A stretch of DNA of 64,000 nt, from NCBI RefSeq assembly GCF_001677475.2, contig NZ_CP015229.1. One strand, 5' to 3'. Under the pieces are notes generated by a model. It was not told where the DNA came from. It searched no databases and saw only the letters and a program-made list of their open reading frames with translations. The DNA comes from Escherichia coli (GTDB lineage Bacteria > Pseudomonadota > Gammaproteobacteria > Enterobacterales > Enterobacteriaceae). The position numbers and the translations under genes are program-made. Every line of letters begins with the position of its first letter. Positions within the stretch are counted from its first letter, which is position 1. Below, piece after piece: positions 1,005 to 59,726 of this stretch.

Positions 1005-1085
1005 GGAAGTGTTTTTTGCGCCGATGCCGGATGCAGCGTTTATTGAACTGCACCCCAAATGTTGGACATAATCTGACATCTGAAG

Positions 1086-1616
1086 GTGCAGTTTATGAAA
1101 CATTCATTTGAAGTAAAACTTGCCGCTGTAAATCATTACCTGGCTGGTCATGCAGGCATCATTTCTACGGCAAAACTCTTTCAACTTTCTCACACCAGCC
1201 TCTCACACTGGATTAATCTTTTTCTTCTTCACGGTCCTCGGGCACTGGATTGCAGACACAAGCGTAGCTATTCTCCTGAAGATAAACTTTGCGTGGTTCT
1301 TTATGCTCTCGGGCATTCTGAGTCTCTACCCCGGGTAGCTGCCCGGTTTAACATTCCCAGCCACAACACGGTTAAAAACTGGATAAAAGGCTACCGCAAA
1401 TCTGGTAATGAGGCCTTTATCAGGCGCAGGAAGGAGAAAAGCATGACCCGTTCTGATGATACCCATGAAAACGAGGCAAACATGACGCCGGAAGAGATGA
1501 AGAATGAGCTGCGTTATCTTCGCGCAGAAAATGCATATCTGAAAGCCATGCAGGAGCATCTCCTGGAAAAAAAGCGCCAGGAGCTGGAGAAAAAACGAAA
1601 GTCATCCAGAGCCTGA
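1086..1616 (+). CDS. IS3-family transposase OrfA (HTH, leucine-zipper-like C-terminus)
   Basis: 176-aa ORF with IS3 OrfA architecture; slippery heptamer A AAA AAG at 1568-1574 near its 3' end. Confidence 0.8.
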   Translation: MQFMKHSFEVKLAAVNHYLAGHAGIISTAKLFQLSHTSLSHWINLFLLHGPRALDCRHKRSYSPEDKLCVVLYALGHSESLPRVAARFNIPSHNTVKNWIKGYRKSGNEAFIRRRKEKSMTRSDDTHENEANMTPEEMKNELRYLRAENAYLKAMQEHLLEKKRQELEKKRKSSRA

Positions 1617-1619
1617 GGT

Positions 1620-2477
<858 letters not shown>

Positions 2478-4253: not shown

Positions 4254-5189
4254 TTAAGCGTAAAATTTCAGACGATCAGCCAGTAAATCAACAAAGCCCT
4301 GACGATCAACATCGACCATTACAGTGGCATTCGGTTTATTGCCGGTCAGATAATAATAATCAACAACCGTCATACCCTGGGTATATTTCCCTTGTGTTTC
4401 CACGCCAACCCAGCGCTCAACAGTGGTAAACAACTCGGGTTTTAACAGCCAGGCGATGGTGCATGGGTCATGTAGCGGTGGGCCGACAAAGCCCCATTTT
4501 TCGTCTTTGTGATATTCGAGGAAGAAATCCAGCAGTTCGGCAACAATGGTTGAAACAGGGTTGCCAATGGCGCGGAAACGCTCGGTGTCCTCAACGTGAA
4601 TTTGTGCTTTGTGAGTAACATCCAGACCGGCCATCACCACCGGGATCCCTGACTGGAAGACAATTTCTGCCGCTTCCGGGTCAACGTAAATATTAAATTC
4701 AGCCGCAGGCGTCCAGTTACCAAGCCCCATTGCGCCGCCCATAATCACGATACGGGCAATTTTGCTATGCAGTTCCGGATGGCTATTGAGCAGCAAGGCA
4801 ACGTTAGTTTGCGGTCCGGTAGACACAATCGTGACAGGTTCCGCACTTTCACGTAGCGTTTTCGCCATCAGCTCCACCGCCGTACACTTTTGCGGTGCAA
4901 ACGTCGGTTCCGGTAATGCCGGGCCGTCGAGACCGCTTTCGCCGTGCACATTGTCCGCGATAATCAACTCACGCATTAACGGTTTTACTGCGCCGCCGGC
5001 TACCGGAATATCGGTGCGATTAAGCAATGTCAGCATACGCAGAACATTGCGTAAGGTTTTTTCTGGAGTCTGGTTTCCGGCGGAAGACGTAATTGCTTTG
5101 ACATCAAGCTCTGGTGAGGCGAGGGCGAGAACTATTGCGATAGCGTCATCATGACCTGGGTCGCAATCTAACAGAATTGGCAGTGCCAT
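4254..5189 (-). CDS. rihA: Pyrimidine-specific ribonucleoside hydrolase RihA
   Basis: ORF with DCDPGHDD nucleoside hydrolase motif; start placed at internal Met MALPILLD (ATG at 5187-5189). Confidence 0.85.
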
Positions 5190-5306
5190 TGTTGCTCCTT
5201 GTTGTGTGCTTCTTTGCGACAAGGGTACCGCCAGGATGTAACAGATACGAGGAGCGAAACGATAAAGCGTGAGATGGCGCGCACTTGGGTATGCGCGCCA
5301 GAGTGA

Positions 5307-6032
5307 TTAATGCAGGATTTTCGCGAGGAAGTCTTTTGCGCGGTCCGATTTCGGATCATCGAAGAAAGCGTCTTTCGGCGAGTCTTCGACAATTTTACCC
5401 TCGTCCATAAAGATCACCCGATTCGCCACTTTACGGGCAAAGCCCATTTCGTGGGTCACCACCATCATGGTCATTCCTTCATTCGCCAGTTCGACCATTA
5501 CGTCCAGCACTTCGTTGATCATCTCCGGATCCAGCGCCGATGTCGGTTCGTCGAACAGCATCGCGATAGGATCCATGCACAATGCGCGAGCGATCGCCAC
5601 ACGCTGCTGCTGACCGCCGGAAAGCTGCGCCGGAAACTTATTGGCATGTGCGGAAAGCCCGACGCGCTCCAGCAATTTCAATGCTTTTTCACGAGCGGGT
5701 GCTTTATCGCGTTTAAGCACTTTCACCTGCGCCAGGGTCAGGTTTTCAATAATCGACAAATGGGGGAACAACTCGAAATGCTGGAACACCATTCCCACAC
5801 GGGAACGCAGCTTCGCCAGATCGGTTTTCTTATCGTTCACCACGATGCCATCGACGGTGATTTCACCTTGCTGCACCGGTTCGAGGCCGTTAACGGTTTT
5901 AATCAGCGTTGATTTACCGGAGCCAGATGGGCCGCAAACCACCACCACTTCGCCTTTTTTCACTTCCGTTGAGCAGTCGGTCAGCACCTGAAAGTGACCA
6001 TACCATTTTGAAACATTTTTCAGGGTAATCAT
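5307..6032 (-). CDS. gltL: Glutamate/aspartate ABC transporter ATP-binding protein
   Basis: 241 aa, Walker [13 protein letters not shown] signature LSGGQQQR. Confidence 0.9.
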
Positions 6033-6706
6033 TATGCTGTCCTTCTTTTCAAGTAGCTGACCAACAACGACGCGCTAAGGCTAATAACGAAATAAACAAA
6101 TCCGGCAAACAGGATCATCTCAACCTGCGTACCATCACGCTCACCAATGGTTGAGGCGGTACGGAAGAAATCGGCCAGAGATAACACATACACCAGTGAG
6201 GTATCCTGAAACAGTACGATGCCCTGAGTGAGCAGCAGCGGCACCATCGCGCGGAACGCCTGCGGCAGAATAATCAGTTTCATCGACTGCCAGTGGGTCA
6301 TCCCCAACGCCAGCGCGGCGCTCGACTGACCACGAGAAATACTTTGAATACCGGCACGGATAATCTCTGAATAGTAGGCCGCTTCAAACATCGAAAACGC
6401 CACCATCGCCGAAATTAAACGGATATCATTTTTTGGTGATAATCCCAGCACGTTTTGCAGAAAACCCGGCACGATCAGGTAAAACCACAGCAAAACCATA
6501 ACTAAAGGAATCGAGCGGAATACGTTAACGTAGGCTTTGGCAAACCACGCTACGGGCGCAAAGCTGGACAAGCGCATCACCGCCAGCATGGTGCCCCACA
6601 AAATACCAATCACGACTGCCGTGACGGTGATTTTCAGGGTGATCACCAGCCCGTCGAGCAGATATGGCAGGGAAGGAACAATGGAACTCCAGTCAAACTC
6701 GTACAT
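6032..6706 (-). CDS. gltK: Glutamate/aspartate ABC transporter permease
   Basis: 224-aa polytopic membrane ORF overlapping gltL start; synteny. Confidence 0.9.
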
Positions 6707-7449: not shown

Positions 7450-7612
7450 TCTACTCCAGAAAAAAGAGGGTAGCAGCGTTAACTGCTACCCTCGAAGATT
7501 GTTACCCAGCGTATTGCGGTTTTCAGGCCCGATGGGGAACGACCATCAGGCGTATAGTCTGTCCGTGCTACGTAACAATCGAGAGGGCTGGAATTTCCGC
7601 CCCTGGTTCTTG
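7450..7612 (-). ncRNA. sroC: SroC sRNA region (gltI 3' UTR / gltI-gltJ intergenic)
   Basis: Position between gltI stop and gltJ start matches where SroC is known to lie; stem-loop AGAGGGTAGCAGCG...CTGCTACCCTC present; boundaries approximate. Confidence 0.35.
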
Positions 7613-7615
7613 TAA

Positions 7616-8524
7616 TTAGTTCAGTGCCTTGTCATTCGGTTCTTTGAACAGAGCTTTCATTTCGTCTGACAGTTCGAAATTCATGTTCAGGTTTTTCGGC
7701 GGAATTGGATTTTTGAACCACTTATCAAACCATTTTTCCGCTTCGCCGGAGGTCTGCACCTGCGCGATGGTGTCATCCATCAGCTTTTTGAACTGCGGAT
7801 CATCTTTACGCAACATACAACCGTAGGCTTCCTGAGACTGCGGCTTGCCGACGATTTCCCAGTTGTCTGGTTTCTTCGCTTTCGCACGTTCACCGGCCAG
7901 CAGAGCGTCATCCATCATAAAGGCAACGGCACGACCGCTTTCCAGGGTGCGGAAAGAGTCACCGTGATCTTTGGCGCTGATGATGCGCATATTCATTTTT
8001 TGCTCTTCATTCAATTTGTTGAGCAAAACTTCAGAGGTAGTGCCGGAAGTGACGACTACGGCTTTGCCTTTCAGGTCGGCAAAATCTTTGATATCGCCGC
8101 CCTTTTTAGTCAGAAGGCGCGTACCGACCACGAAAATAGTGTCAGAGAAAGCCGCCTGTTTCTGGCGTTCGACGTTATTGGTGGTAGAACCACATTCAAA
8201 ATCGAAAGTGCCGTTTTGCAGCAGAGGAATACGGTTTTGTGAGGTGATCGGAATCAGTTTCACCTGCAAGTCCGGTTTGTTGAGTTTCTTTTTCACTGCT
8301 TCAACAATGGCGTTGGAGTAATCCTGCGAGTAACCCACCACTTTTTGCTGATTGTCGTAATAAGAGAAAGGTACTGAAGATTCACGGTGACCGACGACAA
8401 TCACACCGTTTTTGGCGATTTTGTCCAGCGTACTGCCCGCTGCCGGGGCGGCGTCATCTGCCTGTGCCAGTCCTGCGGAAAGCGCCAGGGCCAGGATTGC
8501 TGTGGCAGGTTTACGTAATTGCAT
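7616..8524 (-). CDS. gltI: Glutamate/aspartate periplasmic binding protein
   Basis: ORF with signal peptide MQLRKPATAILALALSAGLAQA; start set at ATG 8522-8524 preceded by AAGGAG. Confidence 0.9.
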   Translation of the reverse strand: MQLRKPATAILALALSAGLAQADDAAPAAGSTLDKIAKNGVIVVGHRESSVPFSYYDNQQKVVGYSQDYSNAIVEAVKKKLNKPDLQVKLIPITSQNRIPLLQNGTFDFECGSTTNNVERQKQAAFSDTIFVVGTRLLTKKGGDIKDFADLKGKAVVVTSGTTSEVLLNKLNEEQKMNMRIISAKDHGDSFRTLESGRAVAFMMDDALLAGERAKAKKPDNWEIVGKPQSQEAYGCMLRKDDPQFKKLMDDTIAQVQTSGEAEKWFDKWFKNPIPPKNLNMNFELSDEMKALFKEPNDKALN

Positions 8525-8920
8525 ATCCAACTCCTTTATCTTCTGCGTTAAGAACGCATGGATACCTGTTGTGAGTGTTTGTGTTGTTATCATCTGCAAC
8601 TTTATTGTGCAGTGTTGTGCCTGTTAGGTAACATTTAGTTTGGCTAAATGTAAAGATATTGCTGTTTTATTGTTTGTTTTTGCGAGTTGCGCCGCACCAT
8701 TCCGAAGCAAAATTCTTAAAATGCACTCTTTTGGTGCTACCCGTGGATTGCTGTGGTGCAACCGGGTTGTACTGATGCTGGTTCACGCTTTGCCTTGTAT
8801 AACAAAGCAATAGATGTGCCAAAGTTGGATAGGGGAATTTTGTTATCCGGATAACGCACTGATGCCGCATCCGGTGAGCGTGCCGAAATACGGGATGTAT
8901 TCCGGCACGATAAGAAGGGA

Positions 8921-10459
8921 TTATTTACGTCGTTGACGCAGACTCATCAGCACAGCAGCAAAACCAAACAGCGCCGTAAGCACCCACAGCGGCCAGTTGC
9001 CGGTACGTGCGTACGGTGTGAGTCCGGTGGTCGGCGTCACGTTAGTGGTTAACACCTCGCGGGTGAACTGCGGGATCATCGCCTGAATCTCACCCTGCGG
9101 ACCAATCACCGCCGTAATGCCGTTGTTGGTGCTACGCAGCAGTGGGCGCGCCAGCTCCAGCGCACGCATTCGCGCCATCTGGAAGTGTTGCCATGGACCA
9201 ATAGATTTACCAAACCACGCATCGTTGGAGATAGTCAGCAGGTAGTCGGTATCCGGGCGGAAGTTATCACGCACTTGCTCGCCGAGAATGATCTCGTAGC
9301 AAATAGCCGCAGTAAGCTCAATACCGTTTACCGACAGCGGCGGCTGGATATATGGCCCACGGCTGAACGACGACATCGGTAGATCAAAGAACGGTGCTAA
9401 CGGACGCAGAATCGACTCCAGCGGGACAAACTCGCCAAACGGCACCAGATGGTTTTTGTTATAGCGATCGGCTGATTCGTAGCTGTACGGCGCACCTTTA
9501 CCCAGCGTGATGATGGTGTTGTAGGTATCGTAGCGGTTCTGCTTATTGAGACGTGCGTCAACAATCCCGGTTACCAGCGAGCTACCTTTATCGCGCAACT
9601 CACCGTCCAGTGCTTTGAGGAACGGTTGCTGATTAATTTCCAGATCGGTTATCGCCGACTCCGGCCAGATAATCAACGATGATTTGCCCATCAGCGGTGC
9701 CGTTGCGTTGTAGTAAATCTTCAGCGTATTAAGAAGCTGGTCTCCGTCCCATTTCAGTGATTGCGGAATATCGCCCTGAACCATCGAAACCTGAATGGTT
9801 TTCTCCGGTTGCGGGGTAAACCACTGGATGTAACGCAGCGGGAAGGGAAGGGCGAACAGCACGACGGCCACCACCATCGGACGCCAGTTGCGTTTGACCA
9901 ACGCCAGTGCCAGCAGGCCGCTAACCATCATTAGCAGGAAGTTAATGGCTTCCACGCCCATTATCGGTGCCAGCCCTTTTAACGGGCCATCAATCTGGCT
10001 ATAGCCGAACTGTAACCACGGGAAACCAGTCAGCACCCAACCGCGCAGAAACTCGGTCACTTGCCAGAGAGCAGGGGCGGCAATCGCCACGCGCAGCCAG
10101 GTGGTTTTCGGCCACAGACGCGACAGCACGCCAGCAAACAGTCCGGTATACAGCGACAAATACGCCGCCAGCAGCACCACCAGGAAGATGTTAACCGGGC
10201 CAGGCATTCCGCCAAAGGTCGCGATGCTGACATAGACCCAGTTAATACCGCTGCCAAAGAGGCCAAATCCCCAGCAAAAGCCAATAGCGGCAGACTGGAG
10301 TGGACGGCGGTTAAAGGTCAGCGCCTGAAGCCCCATCAGCGAAATAATCGCCGCAGGCCAGACGTCGTAAGGAGAGAAGGCCAGCGTTCCGCAGGCACCG
10401 AATAATAACGCCAGCAGCAGGCGAATGCGCTGGCGTTCAATTAATGAGGCAAAAGCCAT
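8921..10459 (-). CDS. lnt: Apolipoprotein N-acyltransferase
   Basis: 512-aa ORF, N-terminal polytopic membrane domain plus C-terminal nitrilase-like domain; synteny. Confidence 0.9.
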
Positions 10460-18755: not shown

Positions 18756-19011
18756 AACCTTCTCCGTTAACCTGGTATTTGTTGCTTGTTGTGTTTGCTT
18801 GTTTAAAAAAATGCCGCAAAGCAGCACTGTGCGCAAGCGATTTGGCAGGGGGTAAATAAAAAACGTAATGGTGATTGCTGATTAATGAAAAAGGGTAGGG
18901 TGTGGAGGTGTATTTATTGATGAATCGATAATTTTTGGCGGGTTTTATTGAATGGGTGAATTTTAATGATGGGTAAAAATAAGAAACCACGCCCTGAGGC
19001 GTGGTTGCTAT

Positions 19012-27195: not shown

Positions 27196-27262
27196 TTTTA
27201 AGTTCTACCAGGCCGGGTGAGGCGTTTACGCCGCATCCGGCATGAAACATGCAAACAATCCA

Positions 27263-32867: not shown

Positions 32868-34508
32868 ATGGCAATCCACAATCGTGCAGGCCAACCTGCA
32901 CAACAGAGTGATTTGATTAACGTCGCCCAACTGACGGCGCAATATTATGTACTGAAACCAGAAGCAGGGAATGCGGAGCACGCGGTGAAATTCGGTACTT
33001 CCGGTCACCGTGGCAGTGCAGCGCGCCACAGCTTTAACGAGCCGCACATTCTGGCGATCGCTCAGGCAATTGCTGAAGAACGTGCGAAAAACGGCATCAC
33101 TGGCCCTTGCTATGTGGGTAAAGATACTCACGCCCTGTCCGAGCCTGCGTTCATTTCCGTACTGGAAGTGCTGGCAGCGAACGGTGTTGATGTCATTGTG
33201 CAGGAAAACAATGGCTTCACTCCGACGCCTGCTGTTTCCAATGCCATCCTGGTTCACAATAAAAAAGGTGGCCCGCTGGCAGACGGTATCGTGATTACAC
33301 CGTCCCATAACCCGCCGGAAGATGGTGGTATCAAGTACAATCCGCCAAATGGTGGCCCGGCTGATACCAACGTCACTAAAGTGGTGGAAGATCGTGCCAA
33401 CGCACTGCTGGCCGACGGCCTGAAAGGCGTGAAGCGTATCTCCCTCGACGAAGCGATGGCATCCGGTCATGTGAAAGAGCAGGATCTGGTGCAGCCGTTT
33501 GTGGAAGGTCTGGCCGATATCGTTGATATGGCGGCGATTCAGAAAGCGGGCCTGACGCTGGGCGTTGATCCGCTGGGTGGTTCCGGTATCGAATACTGGA
33601 AGCGCATTGGCGAGTATTACAATCTCAACCTGACCATCGTTAACGATCAGGTCGATCAAACCTTCCGCTTTATGCACCTCGATAAAGACGGCGCGATCCG
33701 TATGGACTGCTCCTCCGAGTGTGCGATGGCGGGCCTGCTGGCACTGCGTGATAAGTTCGATCTGGCGTTTGCTAACGACCCGGATTATGACCGTCACGGT
33801 ATCGTCACTCCGGCAGGTTTGATGAATCCGAACCACTACCTGGCGGTGGCGATCAACTACCTGTTCCAGCATCGTCCGCAGTGGGGCAAAGATGTTGCTG
33901 TCGGTAAAACGCTGGTTTCTTCTGCGATGATCGACCGTGTGGTCAATGACTTGGGCCGTAAGCTGGTAGAAGTCCCGGTAGGTTTCAAATGGTTTGTTGA
34001 TGGTCTGTTCGACGGCAGCTTCGGCTTTGGCGGCGAAGAGAGCGCAGGGGCTTCCTTCCTGCGTTTCGACGGCACGCCGTGGTCCACCGATAAAGACGGC
34101 ATCATTATGTGTCTGCTGGCGGCGGAAATCACTGCCGTTACCGGTAAGAACCCGCAAGAACACTACAACGAACTGGCAAAACGCTTTGGTGCGCCGAGCT
34201 ACAACCGTTTGCAGGCAGCCGCGACTTCCGCACAAAAAGCGGCGCTGTCTAAACTGTCTCCGGAAATGGTGAGCGCCAGCACCCTGGCAGGTGACCCGAT
34301 CACCGCGCGCCTGACCGCTGCGCCTGGCAACGGTGCTTCTATCGGCGGTCTGAAAGTGATGACTGACAACGGCTGGTTCGCCGCGCGTCCGTCAGGCACG
34401 GAAGACGCCTATAAGATCTATTGTGAAAGCTTCCTCGGGGAAGAACATCGCAAGCAGATTGAGAAAGAAGCGGTTGAGATTGTTAGCGAAGTTCTAAAAA
34501 ACGCGTAA
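32868..34508 (+). CDS. pgm: Phosphoglucomutase
   Basis: 546 aa from [11 protein letters not shown]; active-site TPSHNP motif. Confidence 0.9.
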
Positions 34509-34523
34509 ACACATTTAATAAGA

Positions 34524-34553
34524 AAAAGGGCGGTCAGAAGATCGCCCTTTTTT
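34524..34553. terminator. Bidirectional terminator between pgm and potE
   Basis: Hairpin AAAAAGGGCGGTCAGAAGATCGCCCTTTTTT. Confidence 0.7.
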
Positions 34554-34564
34554 ACTTTGCTTTA

Positions 34565-35884
34565 TTAACCGTGTTTATTTTTCAGTTCAAAGCGTGGTGA
34601 GACCAGACCATACAGTGTCCAACCGAGGAAGGTCACGATGGAACCGTATAGCATGGCTTCTTCCCCGGATGAGTACAGCGCATAAAAGCTGTACATCGCG
34701 CCAACAAAAGCAACAAAGTTTGCAACTTTCGCTTTTGAGGGGGGCACATTAGCGACCTTCTGAATAATGACTAATGCCGCCATTGACAGAATATACGGAA
34801 TGATATTGGTCACCACGGCCAGGTTAACCAGCACGTTGAACTGACTGTTTAGCGACGGGCTAATCGTCATCAGCGCCAACCCGCTCTGGATAATCACAAT
34901 GGTCAACATTCCCTGCACCGGTGCATCCACTTTGGTTACACGGGAGAAAATTTTAGGGAAGTAGCCTTCATCAGATGAAGATTTAAACACCTGGGCAATG
35001 GTGAACTGCCAGCCAAGCAGCGAACCGCAGCAGGACATCACCATCAGCGCCATAATGACTTTACCCACTTCTGGCGTGAACATCTGTGCGAAGGCCAGGC
35101 CAAATGGTGCCGTTGAATTTGCCAGCTCCATATTAGGCACAATCCCTGCAATCACGTTGGTGGAGACGATATAAATCACCGCCGCACCTAACGTACCGCC
35201 GAGTACCGCGATTGGCACATTACGTTCCGGGTTTTCCACTACATCAGTATTCGCACACGCAGACTCCAGACCAAGAAAAGCCCACAGCGTCATAGCGATG
35301 GAAGAACCTACCGCACTGAAGAACGGTGCATGATGCGGATTCCAGGAATCAACGTAAAGCGTCGGGCTAAACCAGAACCAGCCGATAACGCACAGGCCTA
35401 CCACCGGAATAATGACCCCCCACACGGTAATGCTACTGATTTGCCCGGTAATGCGCGCACCACCAAAGTTAGCCACGGTACAAATCCACAGCACCCCGAT
35501 GGTCGCAAGACCAATCTGCACTGGCGACAAACTCGCGCCGAGCAGTTCGGTGCCGTAACCAACCGCCGAAATAGCAATCGCGACGTTAGCAATCAGCAGT
35601 GAGACGCCGTAGGTATAGTTCGCCATAAAGTTACCGGATTTACCGAAAGCATACTCGGCATAACCGCCCATACCACCTGATTTACGGCTGAACATACCGC
35701 ATTTTGCGAATGCCCATGCCAGTGCCATTGAGCCTACGGCTGTCACCAGCCAGGAAATAATTGAGATTGTCCCGACTTCGGCAAGCTTTGTCGGCAGCAT
35801 GATGATACCGGAGCCCATCATGTTGACCATCGTCAGTATGGTTAACTGAACGACGCCCATCTTATTCGATTTAGCCTGACTCAT
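34565..35884 (-). CDS. potE: Putrescine/ornithine antiporter
   Basis: 439-aa APC-family transporter; overlaps speF stop. Confidence 0.9.
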   Translation of the reverse strand: MSQAKSNKMGVVQLTILTMVNMMGSGIIMLPTKLAEVGTISIISWLVTAVGSMALAWAFAKCGMFSRKSGGMGGYAEYAFGKSGNFMANYTYGVSLLIANVAIAISAVGYGTELLGASLSPVQIGLATIGVLWICTVANFGGARITGQISSITVWGVIIPVVGLCVIGWFWFSPTLYVDSWNPHHAPFFSAVGSSIAMTLWAFLGLESACANTDVVENPERNVPIAVLGGTLGAAVIYIVSTNVIAGIVPNMELANSTAPFGLAFAQMFTPEVGKVIMALMVMSCCGSLLGWQFTIAQVFKSSSDEGYFPKIFSRVTKVDAPVQGMLTIVIIQSGLALMTISPSLNSQFNVLVNLAVVTNIIPYILSMAALVIIQKVANVPPSKAKVANFVAFVGAMYSFYALYSSGEEAMLYGSIVTFLGWTLYGLVSPRFELKNKHG

Positions 35885-38079
35885 AATTTTTCCCCTTTCA
35901 ACAGGGTGCTTTGCGCATCACGAGGCTTGATGACATAGCACCAAACTTGCTTACGACCATCATGTTCTTCGATATAGACACCCTGCAGCTCTGGTGCAAA
36001 ACCTGGCAGCAGGTTGATCCCTTCTTCCAGAGCGCTGAAGTAACGCAGAACAGCACCACCCCAGATTTCACCCGGAACAACACACAGCACACCCGGAGGA
36101 TAAGGAAGCGCACCTTCGGCAGCGATACGGCCTTCTGCATCCGGCAGACGAACCAGCTCCACTTCACCGCGTAAGTAGGCGTAGTTGGCTTCTTGCGGAT
36201 TCATGCTGACGCGTGGGAAGTGTTCCTTACGGAACATCTCTTTTTGCAGTTGTTTCACGTTGTGACGGGCATACAAATCATGCATTTCCTGGCACAACTG
36301 ACGCAGGGTATAACCGGCGTAGCGCTCTTCATGCTGTTTGTAGATGGAAGGCAGTACTTCCGCCAGAGGCGCATCAGCTTCCAGTAGTTTTTCGAAGCGT
36401 ACCAGCAGGGCAACAAGTTGCTGCAGTTTGGCCATATCTTCTGCCGGAGTCAGCAGGAAGAGGATGGAGTTAAGATCGCATTTTTCCGGCACTACGCCAT
36501 TTTCGCGCAGGAAGTTAGCAAGAATCGTTGCGGGTACACCGAACGCTTCATATTCGCCGTTACGTGCATCAATACCTGGAGTTGTCAGCAACAGTTTGCA
36601 CGGATCGACAAAGTATTGGTTCTCTGCGTAGCCTTCAAAAGAATGCCAGTGCTCACCGGGTACAAATTTAAAGAAGCGTAGATCAACCGCAATTTGCGCT
36701 GTTTCATACGACTGCCAGGGTTTACCATCCACCAGTTCAGGAACGAACGGGCGAATGTGCTGGCAGTTATCGAGGATCAATTTGCGGGCATTAATACCGT
36801 TAACCACACAATCCATCCACATATTACGACCGCTGACACCTTCATGCATTTTAGCGTTGATATCCAGTGCGGCAAACAGCGGATAGAACGGGCTGGTGGA
36901 GGCGTGCATCATAAAGGCGTTGTTCATGCGTTTGTGCGGTACATAACGCTGTTGCCCTTTGATATGGCTGTCTTTTTTATGAATTTGTGAAGTCTGAGAA
37001 AAACCAGCCTGTTGTTTATGCACAGATTGCGTAACCAGAATACCCGGATCGTTCTCATTAAGCTCCAGTAGCAGCGGCGAACAGTCCGCCATCATCGGAA
37101 TAAACTGTTCATAGCCGACCCATGCTGAGTCAAACAGGATGTAGTCACACAGATGACCGATTTTATCCACCACCTGGCGGGCGTTATAAATAGTACCGTC
37201 GTAGGTGCCTAACTGAATCACAGCGAGGCGGAACGGACGCGCCTCTTTTGCCCGTTGCGGTGCAACTTCTGTAATCAGTTCACGCAGATAACTTTCTTCG
37301 AAGCAGTGCGCATCAATGCCACCGATAAAACCATACGGGTTACGTGCTGTTTCCAGATAAACCGGTGTTGCACCAGCCTGTAGCAAGGCCCCGTGGTGGT
37401 TAGACTTATGGTTATTGCGGTCAAACAGCACCAGATCACCCGGTGTCAGCAGGGCGTTTAAAACCACTTTGTTGGAAGAGGAGGTGCCGTTTAAAACAAA
37501 GTACGTTTTATCGGCATTAAACACTTTAGCCGCATGTTGCTGTGCAATGCATGGCGCACCTTCATGAATCAGTAGATCGCCCATTGCAACGTCGGCATTA
37601 CACAAGTCGGAGCGGAAGAGCATTTCGCCAAAATATTCCACGAACTGATTGCCTGCCGGATGGCGACGGAAAAACTCACCTCCCTGATGACCCGGGCAGT
37701 CAAAAGCGCTATTGCCCTGATTGACATAATCGACCAGTGCGCGGAAGAAGGGCGGGCGCAGTTGCGTTTCATAATGGCTGGCAGCGGTTTCTAACTGACG
37801 TCCATAAAACTCTTTCCGTGATTCGCAATGCTCGAAGACACCCGAAATACGGGGCAAATACTCTGCGGGTACACGTTCTTCATTTTCCGTTGCAATAAAA
37901 ACAGGAATGCCATAGCCAGTAGCGTCTATTTCATCGAGTTTTCCACGTTCAACATCACTGACTGATAAAATAATGGCGGCAACGTCAATATAATTACTTT
38001 TGTCAATATTCACGCATTCACGATGAGTGGAAAAACAATCCGGGCAAGAACGGCTAACGGCAATTTTTAATTCTGACAT
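35881..38079 (-). CDS. speF: Inducible ornithine decarboxylase
   Basis: 732 aa from MSELKIAV; PLP-dependent fold-I decarboxylase. Confidence 0.9.
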   Translation of the reverse strand: MSELKIAVSRSCPDCFSTHRECVNIDKSNYIDVAAIILSVSDVERGKLDEIDATGYGIPVFIATENEERVPAEYLPRISGVFEHCESRKEFYGRQLETAASHYETQLRPPFFRALVDYVNQGNSAFDCPGHQGGEFFRRHPAGNQFVEYFGEMLFRSDLCNADVAMGDLLIHEGAPCIAQQHAAKVFNADKTYFVLNGTSSSNKVVLNALLTPGDLVLFDRNNHKSNHHGALLQAGATPVYLETARNPYGFIGGIDAHCFEESYLRELITEVAPQRAKEARPFRLAVIQLGTYDGTIYNARQVVDKIGHLCDYILFDSAWVGYEQFIPMMADCSPLLLELNENDPGILVTQSVHKQQAGFSQTSQIHKKDSHIKGQQRYVPHKRMNNAFMMHASTSPFYPLFAALDINAKMHEGVSGRNMWMDCVVNGINARKLILDNCQHIRPFVPELVDGKPWQSYETAQIAVDLRFFKFVPGEHWHSFEGYAENQYFVDPCKLLLTTPGIDARNGEYEAFGVPATILANFLRENGVVPEKCDLNSILFLLTPAEDMAKLQQLVALLVRFEKLLEADAPLAEVLPSIYKQHEERYAGYTLRQLCQEMHDLYARHNVKQLQKEMFRKEHFPRVSMNPQEANYAYLRGEVELVRLPDAEGRIAAEGALPYPPGVLCVVPGEIWGGAVLRYFSALEEGINLLPGFAPELQGVYIEEHDGRKQVWCYVIKPRDAQSTLLKGEKL

Positions 38080-38388
38080 TTTGTTCATCTCTTTATTTCA
38101 GGTAATAGCAGGTCCTCAATTTCTCAAAGGAGAAATTGATCACGCCGGAAAAAAAGCAAAACCCACCGCTGATAAATAAATCAGTAGTTTGCTTTTTGCA
38201 GATGCAATAACCCAGACCAGCCCGGTAACTGGCTATACTCGTCATACTTCAAGTTGCATGTGCTGCGACTCGAATTATTTAGAGTTTAAAAGGGTTAGCA
38301 GTATATGAGCACCGAGGGATACAGGTATTAACCTGTAATGCTTAAAGTCAGGGAGACCTGTACGCTGAGGTGCCCTTTAGTCAGAAGA

Positions 38389-38493
38389 CTAGCGGGCATT
38401 AAAGAAATGAAAGTCAAAACTATTACGATGTGCAAACTTCATGATATGGGTTGTCCGCCTTATATGAGGCATTAAGCGGTTATTATTTTCCAT
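38389..38493 (-). CDS. speFL: speF leader peptide SpeFL (ornithine-sensing arrest peptide)
   Basis: 34-codon ORF MENNNRLMPHIRRTTHIMKFAHRNSFDFHFFNAR about 300 nt upstream of speF; matches the recalled SpeFL sequence at all but two positions. Confidence 0.7.
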   Translation of the reverse strand: MENNNRLMPHIRRTTHIMKFAHRNSFDFHFFNAR

Positions 38494-38767
38494 TTACCTT
38501 TACCTTTTTCTGTGTCAGTTGAAGGTAGAGTTATTCTATCCATGAAATGGCTATAATCTGTGAAGAAGATCAACAAAAAACGATCATATCCCAAATAATA
38601 AATCATTAATGATGAATAGCGCCATATTAGATGCTGTTTTGTTGTTTAAATGTTGCAATTTTGTGGGTTGTATTTTCATTAAGAAATTAAACCTGCCAAA
38701 TAATAATTTTCGGGGCAGGTTTAATAATAAATTAATAATTATTTAAGCGTATTTATTGAATAATAAT

Positions 38768-39445
38768 TCATGGCATAAACCGATACCCAATACCGGTTTC
38801 AGTAATAAAATGGCGGGGGCGGGCGGGATCTTGCTCCAGTTTTTGTCGCAGATGCCCCATATAAATACGCAAATAATGACTGTGTTCGACCGCGTTTGGC
38901 CCCCACACCTGGTTAAGGAGCTGGCGCTGGGTGAGCACTTTTCCCGCATTATTAAGCAACACTGCCAGCAGGCGGAACTCAATCGGGGTAAGATGCACCT
39001 CTTCCTCGCCCCGATGGATCACACGAGCTGCTAAATCGACGGTAACATCGGAAAATTTCACCAGCGGATCGGGCGCGGTGGTGGCAGAGTGGCGGCGTAA
39101 AGCGACGCGCAGACGGGCCTGCAATTCGCCAATGCCAAATGGTTTACTCAGGTAATCATCCGCTCCGGCATCCAGCGCGGCGATTTTGTCGCTCTCTTCG
39201 CTACGTGCGGAAAGCACAATCACCGGCACTGCGCTCCACTGGCGCAGGTCGCGGATAAACTCAATCCCATCACCGTCGGGCAGGCCGAGATCGAGAATAA
39301 TCAAATCTGGCTTACGGGTTGCCGCTTCCAGCAAGCCGCGTTGCAGCGTTTCGGCCTCAAAGACGCGCATACCGTCGCCCTCCAGCGCCGTGCGCAGAAA
39401 GCGACGAATAGCCTGTTCATCTTCAACAATCAGAACGTTTGTCAC
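38768..39445 (-). CDS. kdpE: Response regulator KdpE (OmpR family)
   Basis: 225 aa, receiver domain plus winged-helix; overlaps kdpD stop. Confidence 0.9.
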   Translation of the reverse strand: MTNVLIVEDEQAIRRFLRTALEGDGMRVFEAETLQRGLLEAATRKPDLIILDLGLPDGDGIEFIRDLRQWSAVPVIVLSARSEESDKIAALDAGADDYLSKPFGIGELQARLRVALRRHSATTAPDPLVKFSDVTVDLAARVIHRGEEEVHLTPIEFRLLAVLLNNAGKVLTQRQLLNQVWGPNAVEHSHYLRIYMGHLRQKLEQDPARPRHFITETGIGYRFMP

Positions 39446-47052: not shown

Positions 47053-48054
47053 TTGCCTGCGCGTTTAAGCCAGCCTCGTATCAGGGGGCTGGTTTAGGCG
47101 TTTTGAATCAACGGGTTCCATGGTGTTGTTCATTTAATCACTGTTTTAGTATCAATTTTCAATAGTATCCTTTCATAGGACTACTCTGGATGCGTTCACC
47201 TTCATTGTCGCTCTAAGCAACTAGATCCTCAGAAATCTCCAGTTAGGTTGCATCCTTCCTTACACACTTTCCTGAAACTTCAGGGTAAGGTGAGAAAGCC
47301 GCCATCACTTTTTCTTATTCCAGCATCTAAATAAATTCCGAATTTTGCTATTAATATCGCTACCGCAATAAAAACAGATAGTAAAGAGAGTAATATATAC
47401 TTTAGTGATATGTTAAGAATAATTGATTGTTAACATATCTAATGGGATAAGATGTGTTTCTGTTAATGAAAATATTCAAGATTTATAGTTGATAATTAAA
47501 ATACACTCGATATCTCAGCCCTTTCTATGCAAGATGCAATTTTATAAGCTGTCCATTTTTTATATGGAGGCGGTAGCGTGTTTGTTACTCGTGATTTTAT
47601 TGGTATGGTGAATATGTTGGGATTGTTAAATACATAACGGCATATCAGTTCCGGTCATTGTAAATATGGGTAATTGCTTAATGTTATTAGTGATTACCGT
47701 TTGAAAGATAAAGAGTGCTGTAAAGCGGTGATAGACATTACATTCATGATTAAAAAACAGAACCTGTCAATAAATAATTCATTTATTAAAAAGGACGACT
47801 TCTATTATGACGGAATATTATCTCAATGAGACGGTTTGCAAATACAGAGCCAGTTTCTCCGGGGTAACGAGCAGGTGTACCAGTGTCAGGTGGCATTTGT
47901 ATTGCCGGGTGAGCGGGTCATGATGGCCTTCACCTACGCCCGAACCACACCGCTGACCCCGGCAGATATGACGCGCTGGGCTGAAATTAAAAAGAATCTG
48001 CGCTTCAGGATGCGGCAGGAAGCCGGGACGAATTAATCACACAGGGAACGGGAC

Positions 48055-51000
48055 ATGGAAGAGGCATTCTGGGCGGCAAGGCAGGGTGATGCCCTGCTGC
48101 ATACGTCGTTTATGGCAGATGTGCTGGGGGCAGTTGTAGAGGTTGCCGCCACAGCCCTGGTGGATGTTCTGGTTGTCGGAACCATGGCGGCGCTGGGCGG
48201 AGTTGAAGTGGCAACGCTGGGCTGCTCAACCATTTTAGCGATCGGTATAGCAACAGCGGTATTTATGTCGTATCAGGGCTGGAATGACCGAATCAGTAGG
48301 GAAAGTGAGCAACTGGCGAACTGGCTTTTCCCGCCTCAGATTGAAGGTTACATCCTCACCGGCTCTGGCGACACATGGATCAACAGCAAACCTGCCGCGC
48401 GGGCCGCGGCGACTGCGGCATCGCGGCAGGACATTGAGGCGCAGGAGGCGCAGGCGAAGGCGGAACAGGAAGAAGCGCAGCGTCAGGAGGATGCCAGAAC
48501 GTTCCTGGATGTGGCCGGGGAATATCTGGAAATGGCGGGGGCCATAGCCCTGGCGGTTAACCCGGTGACAGGGCCTGTGCTGATGTCCCGGGCGCTGCAC
48601 GACCAGCTCAGTACGGAAGAAGGGCGTTCTGAAATGGTGGATGGCGTGACACATTTTGTGTCGGAACTATGGCAGCCCACCGTGGCCAGTGCGGCCCCGG
48701 GCTCCACCCCGACCCCTGACGATAAAATCGACTGCCATAAACATCCCTCCTCACTGACGCAGTTTCTCGCACAAAAAAAAGCCGCCTTTCTGGATGACCC
48801 CCTGGGAACGGCCCTTAACCTGCTGAGTCCGGGCGGTATGCTGGAAACCGCCTTTCAGGGAGTGAATGCGGTTATTGGCAGCATCAGTAATCTGTTCAAA
48901 GGCGATGATGAACCGCCCGCAGCGGAATATATCGCGGAAGGCGCGCGGGATGTGCGTATCAACAGCCAGCCGGCGGCACGCAGCGGGGCACGCTGCACCT
49001 GCGAGGCCAGGGTGGTGAATGAGCCGGGGAACGGGGCGTTTGTGTCACCGGATGTCCGCATTGGCGGTCCGTTACTGGTGGTCAGGGATATCAGAAGCGG
49101 CAGGTCGCAGATAACCCTGGTGGCAACCGTGGCGCTGATGTTTCTTCGCCCGGGCAAAATGCTTTCTAAAATCGCCTGTTTTGCTGCCAGTGTCGGGATG
49201 GGGGTGATGACGCAGAAGGCCATCAGTGCCCTTCCGCATCCGGTCAATGCCGCCACCGGAGCCAAATATCTGGCCGATGACGATGATTTTGACTTCAGTC
49301 TGCCGGGCCACTTTCCGCTGGACTGGCAGCGCGTGTACAGCAGTCGTGACGACCGCACGGAAGGGATGTTCGGGCAGGGCTGGAGTGTAATGTATGAAGT
49401 CAGCCTCGAGCGCACGCCGGGTACTGCTGACGAAAACTGTATGACCTTTGTGTCGGGCATGGGACGACGTCTGGATATGGAGGCCGTGCTGCCGGGGAGC
49501 GGGTTTTACAGCCCCGGCGAAGGACTGGCAGTACGGCGGGGTGAGCAGGGGCACTGGCTTATCAGCAGCGATGACGGGCAGTTTTTTCTGTTTGAGGCCG
49601 ACCCGCGTCACCCGCAGCGCCAGCGGCTGAAAATGCTGGGCGACCGCAACAGCAACTGTCTGAATCTGTACTACGACGAGCTGGGGCGCATCACGCAAAT
49701 CAGCGGTGAACAGCAGCGTCCGTGCATCCGTCTGCATTATGAACTGGCGGCGCATCCCCGGCGGGTGACACAGATTTATCAGCATTTCCCTGAGATGGCT
49801 CCTTTACTGCTGCGTCGTTACCGCTATGACGAGGCCGGCGACCTGAACGGCGTGTACGACAGCACGGGGCACCTGCTGCGCGAGTTTGCTTACGACGAAA
49901 ACCACTGCATGACCCTGCACCGCCAGCCGGGCGGCGAAGGGTATTATTACCAGTGGGGCTGGTATGAAGGCCCGGATGACGCAGCGTGGCGGGTGACGGG
50001 GCACCACACGGACAGCGGTGAACAGTACCGGCTGGCGTGGAGCCTGGCGGCACGCAGGCTGTGCGTGACGGACGGGCTGGGGCGCACGCGTTATCATCAG
50101 TGGGACGCGCAAAATCAGGTGACGGCGTACCAGGACGAAGCCGGGCAGGTGACGACGTTCCGCTGGAGCGACGAAGAACGGCTGTTACTGGGAATGACCG
50201 ATGCGCAGGGCGGCAAATGGCGCTATGTGTATGACCGGCAGGGGCATATCACGGAGACGCACGACCCGCTGGGGCGGGTGGCACAGACACAGTGGCACCC
50301 GGTGTGGCACCAGCCGGAAACGGAGGTGGACGCGGCGGGGAACAGCTGGTGCTGTGAGTACGATGAACGCGGCAATCTTCTTGCGGTGACCGACCCGCTG
50401 CAGCAGAACACCCGGTATCAGTATGACCGCCACGGCCAGGTGGTGCAGATAACGGATGCGCGCGGGGGGAATAAATACCTTCAGTGGAACGAAGACGGGC
50501 AGCTCATGCGGCACACGGACTGTTCCGGCTCGCAGACGGCCTGGTTCTACGACGAACGCACGCGGCTGATACGGATGACAGACGCGCAGAGCCACAGCAC
50601 GCGCTACGGGTATGACGACAGCGGCCACCTGACGGAGGTGATACTGGCGGACGGCCGCACGGTGAATTACCAGTCGGACGCGGCGGGCAGGCTGGTGAAG
50701 TACACCAGCCCGATGGGGAGGATAACGCGCTGGCAGCGGGACGGGCAGGGCCGGGTGCGCAGCCGGACAGACGCGACGGGGCGCAGGACGGCGTTCGGGT
50801 ACGATGCCTACGGGCGTCTGGTCACGCTCACGAACGAGAACGGAGAAAGCTACCGGTTCCGCCATGACGTGCTGGACCGTCTGGCGGAGCAGATAAATCC
50901 GGACGGCTGCCGCCAGACGTACCGCTACAACGCGCTGAACGCGGTCACGGAAGTGGTGTTCACCGGGGACCGGGGCGGTGAAATCCGCCACCGGCTGGCA

Positions 51001-52737
51001 CGTGATGCGGCGGGCCGGCTCACGGCAAAGGAGACAGCCGATGGCCATACGGAATACGTCCATGATGCGGCAGACCAGCTACTGGAAATCCGCCGCCGAC
51101 GGTCGGATGCCGGGGAAACAGACGCACCGGAGATTATCCGTTTCAGTTACGACAGACTGGGGCGGATGCTGACCGAGGAGACGGCGCAGGGCGTCCTGAC
51201 CCATCAGTACGATGAACTCAGCAACCGGACAGCCACCACCTTTCCGGATGGCAGAACGCAGCGTCATCTGTACTACGGCAGCGGCCATCTCCAGCAGATA
51301 AATCTGGACCGGGAGGTCATCAGCGAGTTCACACGTGACGCCCTGCACCGGGAAGTGCTCAGAAGTCAGGGGCGACTGAGCACGCGGCAGCTTTATGACC
51401 CCGCCGGGCGGCTGAAGCGCAGGGAGACATACAGCGGGATGCGCGGGGTGGTACCGGAGACGTTCACGGACCGGCAGTACAGCTACAGCGGCGAGGATGA
51501 ATTGCTGAAGACGCGGCACAGCCGGCGGGGGGAAACGGATTACTTCTACGACCCCACGGGGCGCATCACGGCGTGCCGCTCGGAGGATGAGAGGTATCTG
51601 GCGAGCTGGCAGTACGACGCGGCGGGAAACCTGCTGGGGAGGCGCGCGGGGGAAAGGGCCACGGCAGAAAACAGCGTGGTGCCGTTCAACCGGCTGATGT
51701 CTTACCGTGGTGTGCACTACCGTTATGACGAATTTGGCCGGACGGTGGAAAAGGAGGGCCGGAGCGGCACGCAGAGTTACCGTTATGATGCGGAACACCG
51801 GATGGTGGAAGTGACGACAGCGCGGGGGACATACCGGTATGTGTACGATGCGCTGGGGAGGCGGACGGAAAAACAGCACATCAGCCCTGACGGTAAACCG
51901 TACAACCGGACGACATTTTTATGGGACGGAATGCGGCTGGCGCAGGAGAGCAGGCCGGAGGGAATAAGCAGCCTGTATATCTACAGCGACCCGGGGAGTT
52001 ATGAACCGCTGGCGCGGGTGGATAAGGCGGGCAAAGAGGGCCCGAACCGGATACTGTATTTTCACACGGATGTGAACGGTGCGCCGGAAGAGATGACGGA
52101 CAGTGACGGGAAAATCGTGTGGGAGACGGGGTATCAGGTCTGGGGTAACACGATACAGGAGAAGGACCACGGCGGGGTGGAGCAGAACCTGCGCTACCAG
52201 GGACAGTACCTCGACAGGGAAACGGGGCTGCATTACAATCTGCACAGGTACTATGATCCGGATGTCGGGCGGTTCATGGTAACGGACCCGATAGGGCTGG
52301 CGGGGGGACTGAATCTTTACCAATACTCACCGAATCCAATAAGTTGGATCGACCCGCTGGGATTAACAGGGGAGTGGGTTAATCCCAAAGATATTAATTT
52401 TTCTCAAAGAACAATATCACCTCATGATTATGCCGATATTATGCGTAATGGTGGTTGGGATTGGGACAGGTCTCCATTAAGAGTAATTGATATTGATGGG
52501 CAATTAGTTTCTTATGATAATAGGCGATTAGACGCAGCTCTAGAGGCCGGATTAGATAAGGTTAAAGTCATTAGAGTTGACCCTAATGCTCCTCATCCTG
52601 ACTCATCTACTGGAAAAACATGGTTACAAAAATTCCGAGAGAGATTTAGAGATCGAAGAAATATAAAGGCCGGTGGAATAGTACCAGATAAAGGATTAAA
52701 TTCTCGACCGGAAAGAACATCAAGAGGTTGCAAATGA
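48055..52737 (+). CDS. Rhs-family polymorphic toxin with prePAAR motif, N-terminal TM segments, PAAR motif, YD-repeat shell and variable C-terminal toxin domain
   Basis: 1560-aa ORF; N-terminus MEEAFWAARQGDALLH fits AARxxDxxxH; hydrophobic segments at residues ~20-70; SKPAARA PAAR motif; many YD repeats; [27 protein letters not shown] demarcation before a unique ~130-aa tip. Confidence 0.85.
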   Translation: MEEAFWAARQGDALLHTSFMADVLGAVVEVAATALVDVLVVGTMAALGGVEVATLGCSTILAIGIATAVFMSYQGWNDRISRESEQLANWLFPPQIEGYILTGSGDTWINSKPAARAAATAASRQDIEAQEAQAKAEQEEAQRQEDARTFLDVAGEYLEMAGAIALAVNPVTGPVLMSRALHDQLSTEEGRSEMVDGVTHFVSELWQPTVASAAPGSTPTPDDKIDCHKHPSSLTQFLAQKKAAFLDDPLGTALNLLSPGGMLETAFQGVNAVIGSISNLFKGDDEPPAAEYIAEGARDVRINSQPAARSGARCTCEARVVNEPGNGAFVSPDVRIGGPLLVVRDIRSGRSQITLVATVALMFLRPGKMLSKIACFAASVGMGVMTQKAISALPHPVNAATGAKYLADDDDFDFSLPGHFPLDWQRVYSSRDDRTEGMFGQGWSVMYEVSLERTPGTADENCMTFVSGMGRRLDMEAVLPGSGFYSPGEGLAVRRGEQGHWLISSDDGQFFLFEADPRHPQRQRLKMLGDRNSNCLNLYYDELGRITQISGEQQRPCIRLHYELAAHPRRVTQIYQHFPEMAPLLLRRYRYDEAGDLNGVYDSTGHLLREFAYDENHCMTLHRQPGGEGYYYQWGWYEGPDDAAWRVTGHHTDSGEQYRLAWSLAARRLCVTDGLGRTRYHQWDAQNQVTAYQDEAGQVTTFRWSDEERLLLGMTDAQGGKWRYVYDRQGHITETHDPLGRVAQTQWHPVWHQPETEVDAAGNSWCCEYDERGNLLAVTDPLQQNTRYQYDRHGQVVQITDARGGNKYLQWNEDGQLMRHTDCSGSQTAWFYDERTRLIRMTDAQSHSTRYGYDDSGHLTEVILADGRTVNYQSDAAGRLVKYTSPMGRITRWQRDGQGRVRSRTDATGRRTAFGYDAYGRLVTLTNENGESYRFRHDVLDRLAEQINPDGCRQTYRYNALNAVTEVVFTGDRGGEIRHRLARDAAGRLTAKETADGHTEYVHDAADQLLEIRRRRSDAGETDAPEIIRFSYDRLGRMLTEETAQGVLTHQYDELSNRTATTFPDGRTQRHLYYGSGHLQQINLDREVISEFTRDALHREVLRSQGRLSTRQLYDPAGRLKRRETYSGMRGVVPETFTDRQYSYSGEDELLKTRHSRRGETDYFYDPTGRITACRSEDERYLASWQYDAAGNLLGRRAGERATAENSVVPFNRLMSYRGVHYRYDEFGRTVEKEGRSGTQSYRYDAEHRMVEVTTARGTYRYVYDALGRRTEKQHISPDGKPYNRTTFLWDGMRLAQESRPEGISSLYIYSDPGSYEPLARVDKAGKEGPNRILYFHTDVNGAPEEMTDSDGKIVWETGYQVWGNTIQEKDHGGVEQNLRYQGQYLDRETGLHYNLHRYYDPDVGRFMVTDPIGLAGGLNLYQYSPNPISWIDPLGLTGEWVNPKDINFSQRTISPHDYADIMRNGGWDWDRSPLRVIDIDGQLVSYDNRRLDAALEAGLDKVKVIRVDPNAPHPDSSTGKTWLQKFRERFRDRRNIKAGGIVPDKGLNSRPERTSRGCK

Positions 52738-53168
52738 AAAATATTATTCAGTTATGGGAAGATGGTTTATTACCGATAAAAGATGCTATTTACTTTTCTA
52801 ACGGTGAATCTTTCCTTTGTAAAATAACATCTTACCCTACTCCTTGTATTGAGAAAAATGGTGAGTTTGATTTCTCTGCCTTTTATGAAAAAAATAAAGA
52901 TGAAGTTACTGATATTGATAAGTCTAGAGAAGTTAAATTAGCGAATAATTGCTATTGTTGCATTGGAGAAGGTAGTTATGGTTCTGAAGGATTTATCGCA
53001 TATCTCGATGAAAATAAAAACTTAGTTTGGGTTCTTTATTCCGAAGAATCTAATCCATTTATTAATATAACTGAATATACATCTGATATTATTATAGTAG
53101 AATCAAGTTCTAATATTAGACTAAGAATAAATATAAACAATCCAGTGGATTTAGAATTGGCATTTTAA
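52734..53168 (+). CDS. Putative cognate immunity protein of the Rhs C-terminal toxin
   Basis: ATG overlaps the rhs TGA stop (ATGA); AT-rich 144-aa ORF directly downstream of a toxin tip. Confidence 0.6.
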   Translation: MKNIIQLWEDGLLPIKDAIYFSNGESFLCKITSYPTPCIEKNGEFDFSAFYEKNKDEVTDIDKSREVKLANNCYCCIGEGSYGSEGFIAYLDENKNLVWVLYSEESNPFINITEYTSDIIIVESSSNIRLRININNPVDLELAF

Positions 53169-53169
53169 A

Positions 53170-53211
53170 TAAAAAGCCGGGTGAAATTAAATCTTCCCGG
53201 CTTTTTTATTA
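53170..53211. terminator. Hairpin terminator (AAAGCCGGG-loop-CCCGGCTTTTTT), first of four copies of this motif
   Basis: Perfect GC stem flanked by A and T runs between the immunity gene and the convergent symE-like gene; similar hairpins at 57795-57835, 60412-60452 and 62816-62902. Confidence 0.7.
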
Positions 53212-53212
53212 T

Positions 53213-53542
53213 TTAACTCTCGTTCAGCACACTAAACATCCCGTTCCGCATCCCCTTAACCACCTGTTTAACCTGATAAAGTTCTTCCCGCAGCTCCTGC
53301 ACCTCGTCACTGTCAGCGATGATGGTCAGGTACCCCTCCGAAATCTTCACCGTGACACCCCGCCCGGTATCAAATCCCGCCTCAGCCAGCCAGTCGCCCT
53401 TGAGGTGCAGGCTGGGATGTTGTGAATAATACCGGGCTATACCTGTTGTGCGGTCCTGGTGGCGGGTTCTGACATAGCCGACTTTATAGCGGCGCTGGGT
53501 TTTGGAAATGGTGACTTCTGGCGTAATATCGTGTTCAGCCAT
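53213..53542 (-). CDS. SymE-like protein (type I toxin family, AbrB/MazE-like fold), full-length copy
   Basis: 109-aa ORF; core HLKGDWLAEAGFDTGRGVTVKISEGYLTII resembles SymE KGxWLxxAGFxxGxxVxV motif as recalled. Confidence 0.6.
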   Translation of the reverse strand: MAEHDITPEVTISKTQRRYKVGYVRTRHQDRTTGIARYYSQHPSLHLKGDWLAEAGFDTGRGVTVKISEGYLTIIADSDEVQELREELYQVKQVVKGMRNGMFSVLNES

Positions 53543-53781
53543 GATTAACTACTCCTGTTAGTTGCTTGTGGTGAGCGGCTGTTACAGGCGGCAACCTGTA
53601 GCAGTCGCGTTAAATATCAACGCATTACCTTCATTACCTGCTTCATCTTCTCCTGGGTGATCGCCATATCCAGAATACGGCAGATCACTTCCTGATCGTC
53701 TGCTTTAAGCTCATCAACCTGCTTACACAGTTCTTTTAACCGCTTGTTTTTTATATCGAAAACATCGCGGAAGAAGAAGGT

Positions 53782-54861: not shown

Positions 54862-55065
54862 GTACGACTTCATCCGGTCGGGGCAACGGCTGCAATAGTC
54901 GGCCCCTGGTCGGCAGTCAGTCGGCGGGTAGTCGGGGTGCGTAAAACCCCCGCAGGCCGCGCCCGGCAAGGTTCAGGCCATGAAGCGGTCGGCCTGCCTG
55001 AAAATCACTGTTCCATCCTCTGTTCTTCTCTCTGTCGTACCGTAATCTCAATCAGGACAATCATC

Positions 55066-57515: not shown

Positions 57516-57526
57516 TGTGAGGTTTT

Positions 57527-57790: not shown

Positions 57791-57836
57791 AATAAAAGCC
57801 GGGACGGTTATTAAATCTTCCCGGCTTTTTTATTAC

Positions 57837-58070: not shown

Positions 58071-58263
58071 GGTACAGTGGCGCTGTGTTTTGGAAATGAT
58101 ATTCTTATATTTAATCTGCTGATTAGATAGTAAAATTAACTTCGTGCAGATAGCTTACTTTATCAGGGTGCGGCGGTAGTGTATGAACTATGACGTGATG
58201 GTTTTAGTGATTTATATACGAAAATGACAGTACGATCCGGACTTCGAATAGATTGCGCGATTT

Positions 58264-58413: not shown

Positions 58414-58419
58414 ACAATT

Positions 58420-59700: not shown

Positions 59701-59726
59701 ACACATTTTCTGAACACGGACAGAAA

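Follow-up and report, generated by a model that had tools for sequence, protein, structure and literature searches.

The DNA stretch analysed here (64,000 nucleotides, hereafter the window) is very probably part of a non-K-12 Escherichia coli core chromosome which carries empty, uninterrupted alleles at two junctions, gltI-lnt and pgm-potE. The window runs from djlC to ybfA and then enters an Rhs island. At the site where an IS5 element is found in K-12, it is K-12 that is the exception, and the state of the window is common. According to the proposed mechanism the 396-bp spacer between gltI and lnt would serve as the native regulatory DNA of gltI-sroC-gltJKL, where a predicted sigma-54 promoter with nearby NtrC-like sites may drive the uptake of glutamate and aspartate under nitrogen limitation. 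The two spacers are ordinary strain polymorphisms which were already known, and the promoter was known as well; here it is seen in its native, uninterrupted form.

The two junctions and the genes which border them are the following:

7616-8524, minus strand: gltI, binding protein of the glutamate/aspartate ABC transporter, 302 aa (RefSeq annotation of matching genomes; exact protein in a public collection)
8525-8920, no strand assigned: uninterrupted gltI-lnt spacer, 396 bp, comprising the predicted control sequences of gltI and the hairpins 3' of lnt; neither IS5 nor a rhomboid-protease gene is present
8921-10459, minus strand: lnt, apolipoprotein N-acyltransferase, 512 aa (exact protein ANO87847.1, labelled E. 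coli)
32868-34508, plus strand: pgm, phosphoglucomutase, 546 aa, with its stop at 34508
34509-34564, no strand assigned: pgm-potE spacer, 56 bp, with one bidirectional intrinsic-terminator-like hairpin (34522-34553)
34565-35884, minus strand: potE, putrescine-ornithine antiporter, 439 aa, with its stop at 34565, convergent with pgm

Comparison of the window with K-12

As a K-12 reference two annotated stretches of strain C3026 were joined, and the whole window was aligned to them by BLAST. This alignment had been recommended in the preliminary description of the sequence, and it revealed that the gene content differs from that of K-12 at both gltI-lnt and pgm-potE. From djlC to ybfA (1-47056) the window is colinear with K-12, with 93-99% identity per 2 kb and about 97% overall, while past 47056 a copy of ISAs1 was the sole sequence that the window and the K-12 stretch had in common in the alignment. 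Membership in the K-12 lineage was judged by a core identity over 99.9% together with the presence of rhsC downstream of ybfA, and the window shows neither.

The preliminary description, all coordinates of which proved to be exact, had deduced a non-K-12 lineage from a gltI-lnt gap of about 400 bp lacking IS5, a 56-bp pgm-potE gap with a shared terminator and without the small genes of K-12, an insertion sequence at position 1044 and an rhs gene unlike that of K-12. Its deduction is borne out at every point. The gltI-lnt gap measures 396 bp and is free of IS5; one strong bidirectional hairpin was found in the 56 bp between pgm and potE, where ybfP, ybfG and ybfI are missing; the insertion sequence is IS1397, and the Rhs protein is only distantly related to RhsC (29% amino-acid identity, without any nucleotide match). 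The IS5 at gltI, the ybfP-ybfG-ybfI genes, the IS-free flank of hscC and rhsC, all characteristic of K-12, are thus absent or different in the window. Chance does not enter into these differences, since they come from direct comparison with a reference.

At window position 8624-8627 K-12 has 1,199 extra bp, composed of the 1,195-bp IS5 and a 4-bp TTAG duplication, with the junctions CCTG-TTAG-GGAAGGTGCG...IS5...CGCACCTTCC-TTAG-GTAACA. On the basis of the junction sequences and the alignment the window contains here:

8624-8627, no strand assigned: a single TTAG, the empty target of the K-12 IS5 (insH3), 100 bp upstream of gltI

In other respects the two arrangements are alike: the flanking genes are the same, the K-12 spacer minus IS5 is about 96-97% identical to that of the window, the sigma-54 motif is identical, and both have the REP-like palindrome and the hairpin at lnt. 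In K-12, but not in the window, IS5 keeps the sigma-54 promoter and gltI about 1.2 kb apart.

Relative to K-12 the window has an insertion of its own:

1044-2475, plus strand: IS1397 (IS3 family), 1,432 bp, between djlC and hscC; 99.8% identity over 1,433 bp to annotated copies

The element interrupts a REP palindrome within its loop and is flanked by a duplication of TTAT or TTA. Its ends (TGAACTG...CAGTTCA) were read from the sequence as TGAACTGCACCCCAAA and TTTGGGGTTCAGTTCA, and the empty site of K-12 keeps the intact REP palindrome GCCGGATGCAGCGTTTACGCCGCATCCGGC. Reportedly, Bachellier, Clement, Hofnung and co-workers recognized that IS1397 inserts into REP/BIME palindromes; the window copy conforms to this known target preference and nothing notable differs. 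The djlC segment next to it (1-1042) shares 99.7% identity with strain 135 (NZ_CP080260.1) and 95.4% with K-12, while the remaining core is 98.2% identical to strain 135; judged from these identities, the segment is probably a local mosaic created by recombination adjoining the IS1397 site.

Minor differences were also seen elsewhere in the core. REP/BIME blocks present only in K-12 occur in the asnB-nagD gap (about 140 bp, at window 18955-18985) and in the glnS-chiP gap (about 130 bp, at 27210-27257). The potE-speF segment (34565-38767) is 93-94% identical to K-12 as against 97-99% in its flanks, and in the speF-kdpE spacer the identity drops to about 74%; the leader peptide speFL (38389-38493, minus strand) is retained with two substitutions relative to K-12.

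The gltI-lnt spacer and its predicted promoter

The distribution of the gltI-lnt alleles was counted in 5,426 complete RefSeq E. coli genomes. A 796-bp query was covered in one piece, that is, the spacer was uninterrupted, in 1,834 of them, and a 2.5-kb query in which an IS5-sized gap was allowed was covered in 2,178. The exact IS5 junction of K-12 was present in 351 of the 5,426 genomes, which among the matches listed were K-12 laboratory derivatives or O16:H48 strains. About 60% of the genomes (approximately 3,246) break at window positions 8769 and 8937; in BL21 a gene for a 625-aa rhomboid-family intramembrane protease is situated at this break (4270-6483 of the BL21 locus). In E. coli the gltI-lnt locus exists in three states: it can be empty, occupied by IS5 or, in about 60% of the complete genomes, occupied by the rhomboid-family protease gene.

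Genomes with the empty state resemble the window closely. In AF39 (NZ_OZ547136.1), strain 135 and O157:H7 the spacer is likewise 396 bp long without insertion and 97.4-98.7% identical, the differences being point substitutions only, and the matching RefSeq genomes annotate nothing between gltI and lnt. In the BL21-type allele the 245 bp upstream of gltI (8525-8769) are 96% identical to the window and a sigma-54-like element stands at an equal distance from gltI, but about 2.2 kb replaces window 8770-8936 and the last codons of lnt also differ. The spacer measures 396 bp in a genome labelled E. albertii, which is 92.8% identical to the window. In Salmonella Typhimurium, with about 82% nucleotide identity overall, the gene order lnt-gltI-gltJKL is the same and the spacer is 353 bp long. 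The rhomboid protease gene was absent from gltI-lnt in the E. albertii and Salmonella outgroups examined. Since the spacer is short in both, the short form can be regarded as ancestral, and IS5 and the rhomboid gene as later gains.

The following elements could be assigned within the spacer:

8722-8738 and 8754-8763, no strand assigned: two NtrC-like elements, TGCACTCTTTTGGTGCT and TGGTGCAACC, 22 bp apart, putative binding sites (direct repeat and reading of the sequence)
8806-8822, minus strand: predicted sigma-54 promoter element TTGGCACATCTATTGCT, facing gltI; zero mismatches to TGGCAC-N5-TTGCW
8841-8909, minus strand: inverted repeats just downstream of lnt, a REP-like palindrome (about 8841-8875) and a hairpin with 13-bp arms (8879-8909)

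A pattern search with TGGCAC-N5-TTGCW gave this one perfect match in the whole 64 kb, at 8806-8821, and it is oriented toward gltI. K-12, AF39 and strain 135 have the motif without any change, and the BL21-type allele has it with one mismatch, the GG/GC core being kept and the distance to gltI unchanged. Salmonella Typhimurium has the near-identical TGGCACGTCTATTGCT upstream of its gltI. The transcript of gltI would start near 8795 and have a leader of about 270 nt. Two further sigma-54 elements, picked by eye near 8590-8621, were dropped, their spacing being wrong.

Published data from K-12 and Salmonella agree with this assignment. At OS04, a sigma-54 ChIP-seq site of K-12 that was assigned to insH3 in the study concerned, the identical 17-mer TTGGCACATCTATTGCT is found (PMC4591121). 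An NtrC ChIP-seq peak of K-12 at 688381-688461 was assigned by its authors to gltIJKL (PMC4066584); by our own conversion of coordinates it corresponds to about 8744-8824 of the window and covers the sigma-54 motif, and the two NtrC-like elements fall within or beside it. RpoN and NtrC gSELEX peaks were likewise located between insH and lnt in K-12 (PMC8743547). For Salmonella gltI (STM0665) the sigma-54 site TGGCACGTCTATTGCTTT was reported, and the operon is listed as NtrC-dependent (PMC3844500). NtrC may accordingly be expected to bind at 8722-8763, as the sequence of the two elements suggests. These sites are located downstream of the sigma-54 element, on the gltI side, an unusual position, as in classic NtrC promoters they are found upstream.

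Without IS5 the predicted sigma-54 promoter of the window is continuous with gltI, as in Salmonella. K-12 has gained IS5 at the TTAG that lies 100 bp ahead of gltI, and the element splits the promoter from its gene. The promoter is predicted to be active in the strain of the window, the binding data all coming from K-12. It should be emphasized that K-12 genome-wide studies assign this sigma-54 promoter, site OS04, to insH3 because in K-12 the IS5 separates the NtrC/sigma-54 promoter from gltI and adjoins the site. Strains like that of the window show the native arrangement of the gltI promoter.

The remaining part of the spacer appears to be devoid of further signals of the kinds searched for. 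A simple consensus scan of the gltI-lnt spacer detected no sigma-70 promoter, and no credible ORF was recognized in it, the small ORFs being short, overlapping and unannotated in the matching RefSeq genomes. At the gathering thresholds of Rfam no family was found in 8525-8920 or in 34509-34564. The palindrome and the hairpin after lnt fold together at -34.2 kcal/mol (z -5.1), and no T-run follows them. The sRNA sroC lies outside this spacer, between gltI and gltJ (7458-7620, minus strand, 174.8 bits in Rfam), as in K-12.

The pgm-potE junction

The hairpin of the 56-bp spacer (34522-34553) has 14 pairs, a G+C-rich stem, an A-run on one side and a T-run on the other. Its calculated folding energy is -21.1 kcal/mol (z -5.8) for the plus strand and -16.2 kcal/mol (z -3.9) for the minus strand. 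A G+C-rich stem-loop with a U-run is therefore present on both transcripts, as in a bidirectional intrinsic terminator, and the hairpin could end both of the convergent transcripts, pgm and potE. Termination of the two transcripts at this point in the strain of the window is predicted from the sequence.

In K-12 pgm and potE converge likewise and a homologous terminator hairpin is present, but the K-12 junction is 1,747 bp long and accommodates three additional genes or pseudogenes (ybfP, pseudo-ybfG and pseudo-ybfI) and two hairpin copies, as against 56 bp and one hairpin in the window. The two similar hairpins are located at the edges of the K-12 block and ATCGCCCTTTTTTAC is found in both. 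The single hairpin of the window resembles a hybrid of them, in that its stem and loop correspond to the copy next to pgm and its flank to the one next to potE. At this junction K-12 thus differs by a 1.7-kb block, ybfP with the two pseudogenes, between two copies of the terminator hairpin. A side observation concerns ybfI: the 3' end of kdpE (window 38767-38911) is 89% identical to the ybfI pseudogene fragment of the K-12 junction, and because of this identity ybfI appears to be a stray copy of the end of kdpE.

The 56-bp junction is the majority state, since 3,196 of the 5,426 complete genomes (59%) match its query without a break. Other cargo is found at the site in the outgroups. E. albertii CP034212.1 has the terminator and an IS200-like Y1 transposase, and Salmonella has a Pyridox_ox_2 gene; the intervals concerned in the outgroup loci are 5642-6409 and 5642-6305. 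The pgm-potE junction is a small cargo hotspot, and its empty state is probably ancestral for Escherichia; we infer this direction of the event with outgroups, E. albertii and Salmonella, which themselves carry other cargo.

The opposite direction has to be considered as well, namely that the short junction is a derived deletion, in which an ancestral ybfP-ybfG-ybfI block was lost in the lineage of the window and in many others by recombination between the two similar hairpins. The two copies of the hairpin sharing ATCGCCCTTTTTTAC around the K-12 block and the hybrid-like character of the window hairpin could be explained in this way, and the pseudogene state of ybfG and ybfI in K-12 would fit an old, decaying segment. 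Nevertheless, the short state is that of the majority, ybfP, ybfG and ybfI are missing from this position both in Salmonella and in E. albertii, where only the terminator and the IS200-like element are found, and an insertion which duplicated the hairpin would leave identical junctions. We consider such a deletion unlikely, and prefer the reading that the empty junction is the older one.

Lineage of the window and the adjoining Rhs island

As markers the two short spacers are weak: they say 'not K-12' and do not identify the lineage of the window, being common or ancestral-like states. The lineage can be placed much more closely by its nucleotide divergence. Among the 5,426 complete RefSeq E. 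coli genomes the highest identity was 98.2% for 1-25000 and 97.6% for 25001-47000, with near-equal identity to strains of many sources, hosts and serotypes. Draft assemblies are much closer: GCA_002516285.1 (NJSK01000068.1) reaches 99.995% identity over 18.7 kb, and three more show 99.5-99.8%. The exact Lnt protein, ANO87847.1, was seen on 63 contigs. The source of the window is thus an E. coli lineage which has been sequenced and is missing from the complete RefSeq set.

The same drafts bear on whether the differences from K-12 might have arisen in assembly, through the collapse of repeats such as IS5. Assemblies typically break or collapse at IS elements and rhs genes, and the draft contigs of this lineage do end at IS1397 and near rhs. 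However, the empty IS5 site consists of one TTAG without a scar, the same short spacers occur in thousands of complete genomes, and the gltI-lnt layout is the same in the four independent draft assemblies, whose agreement rules out an artefact at gltI-lnt. For the differences as a whole we regard the chance of such an origin as negligible. The breaks of the draft contigs at IS were also the reason why a Shigella source was considered; with one IS in the 47 kb of core and no exact-Lnt record labelled Shigella, it is not supported.

A further question is whether the window comes from a deep-branching or badly under-sampled lineage (one resembling cryptic clade I, a rare phylogroup or a Shigella-like clone), for which K-12 would be the wrong frame altogether. 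No complete RefSeq E. coli genome exceeds the identities given above, and the window is nearly equidistant from many strains. Moreover, E. albertii (92.8%) and Salmonella (82-84%) are in this region about 2 points more similar to the window than what we take to be their genome-wide identities; given this higher conservation of the region, the genome-wide identity of the window's source to E. coli may be near 95-96%. On the other hand, the exact Lnt protein is labelled Escherichia coli in the public records, the gene order is fully E. coli-like, and a divergence of 2-3% is also seen between ordinary phylogroups. A lineage-specific 36-mer (18877-18912) had no exact match in any GTDB species representative, which makes a separate GTDB species improbable. 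A deep lineage is therefore a possibility that we hold only tentatively. The same tentative standing is given to the corollary that such an unrepresented lineage would have preserved both variable junctions in their ancestral form, free of cargo, in which case the adjoining Rhs island would come from a poorly charted part of the species.

Whatever its depth, the preferred reading, a non-K-12 E. coli core with two empty alleles, calls for caution with K-12 as a reference, K-12 being an unusual genome at both sites. Since the core, E. coli-like as it is, differs by about 2% from all of the complete RefSeq genomes, a rare lineage and not K-12 is the proper standard for the accessory DNA beside it. 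This DNA (47057-64000) includes:

48055-52737, plus strand: toxin gene with PAAR, DUF6531 and RHS-repeat domains (Pfam), 1,560 aa, at the K-12 rhsC site
54937-55941: integrase-family ORF
58521-59657: ISAs1 copy
60746-62518: orphan rhs fragment with its own tip

Of the island only 71% is covered by its best match in E. coli, with 94% identity. By comparison of the sequences, the Rhs protein represents a different Rhs family at the rhsC site, a difference which goes beyond another allele or tip. The small ORF at 52728-53168 is likely to be its immunity gene. Just downstream of the C-terminal toxin of Rhs and of this ORF, the sequence at 53343-53471 on the plus strand matches the Rfam family isrA, an Hfq-binding sRNA of Salmonella islands, over its full length (107.5 bits).
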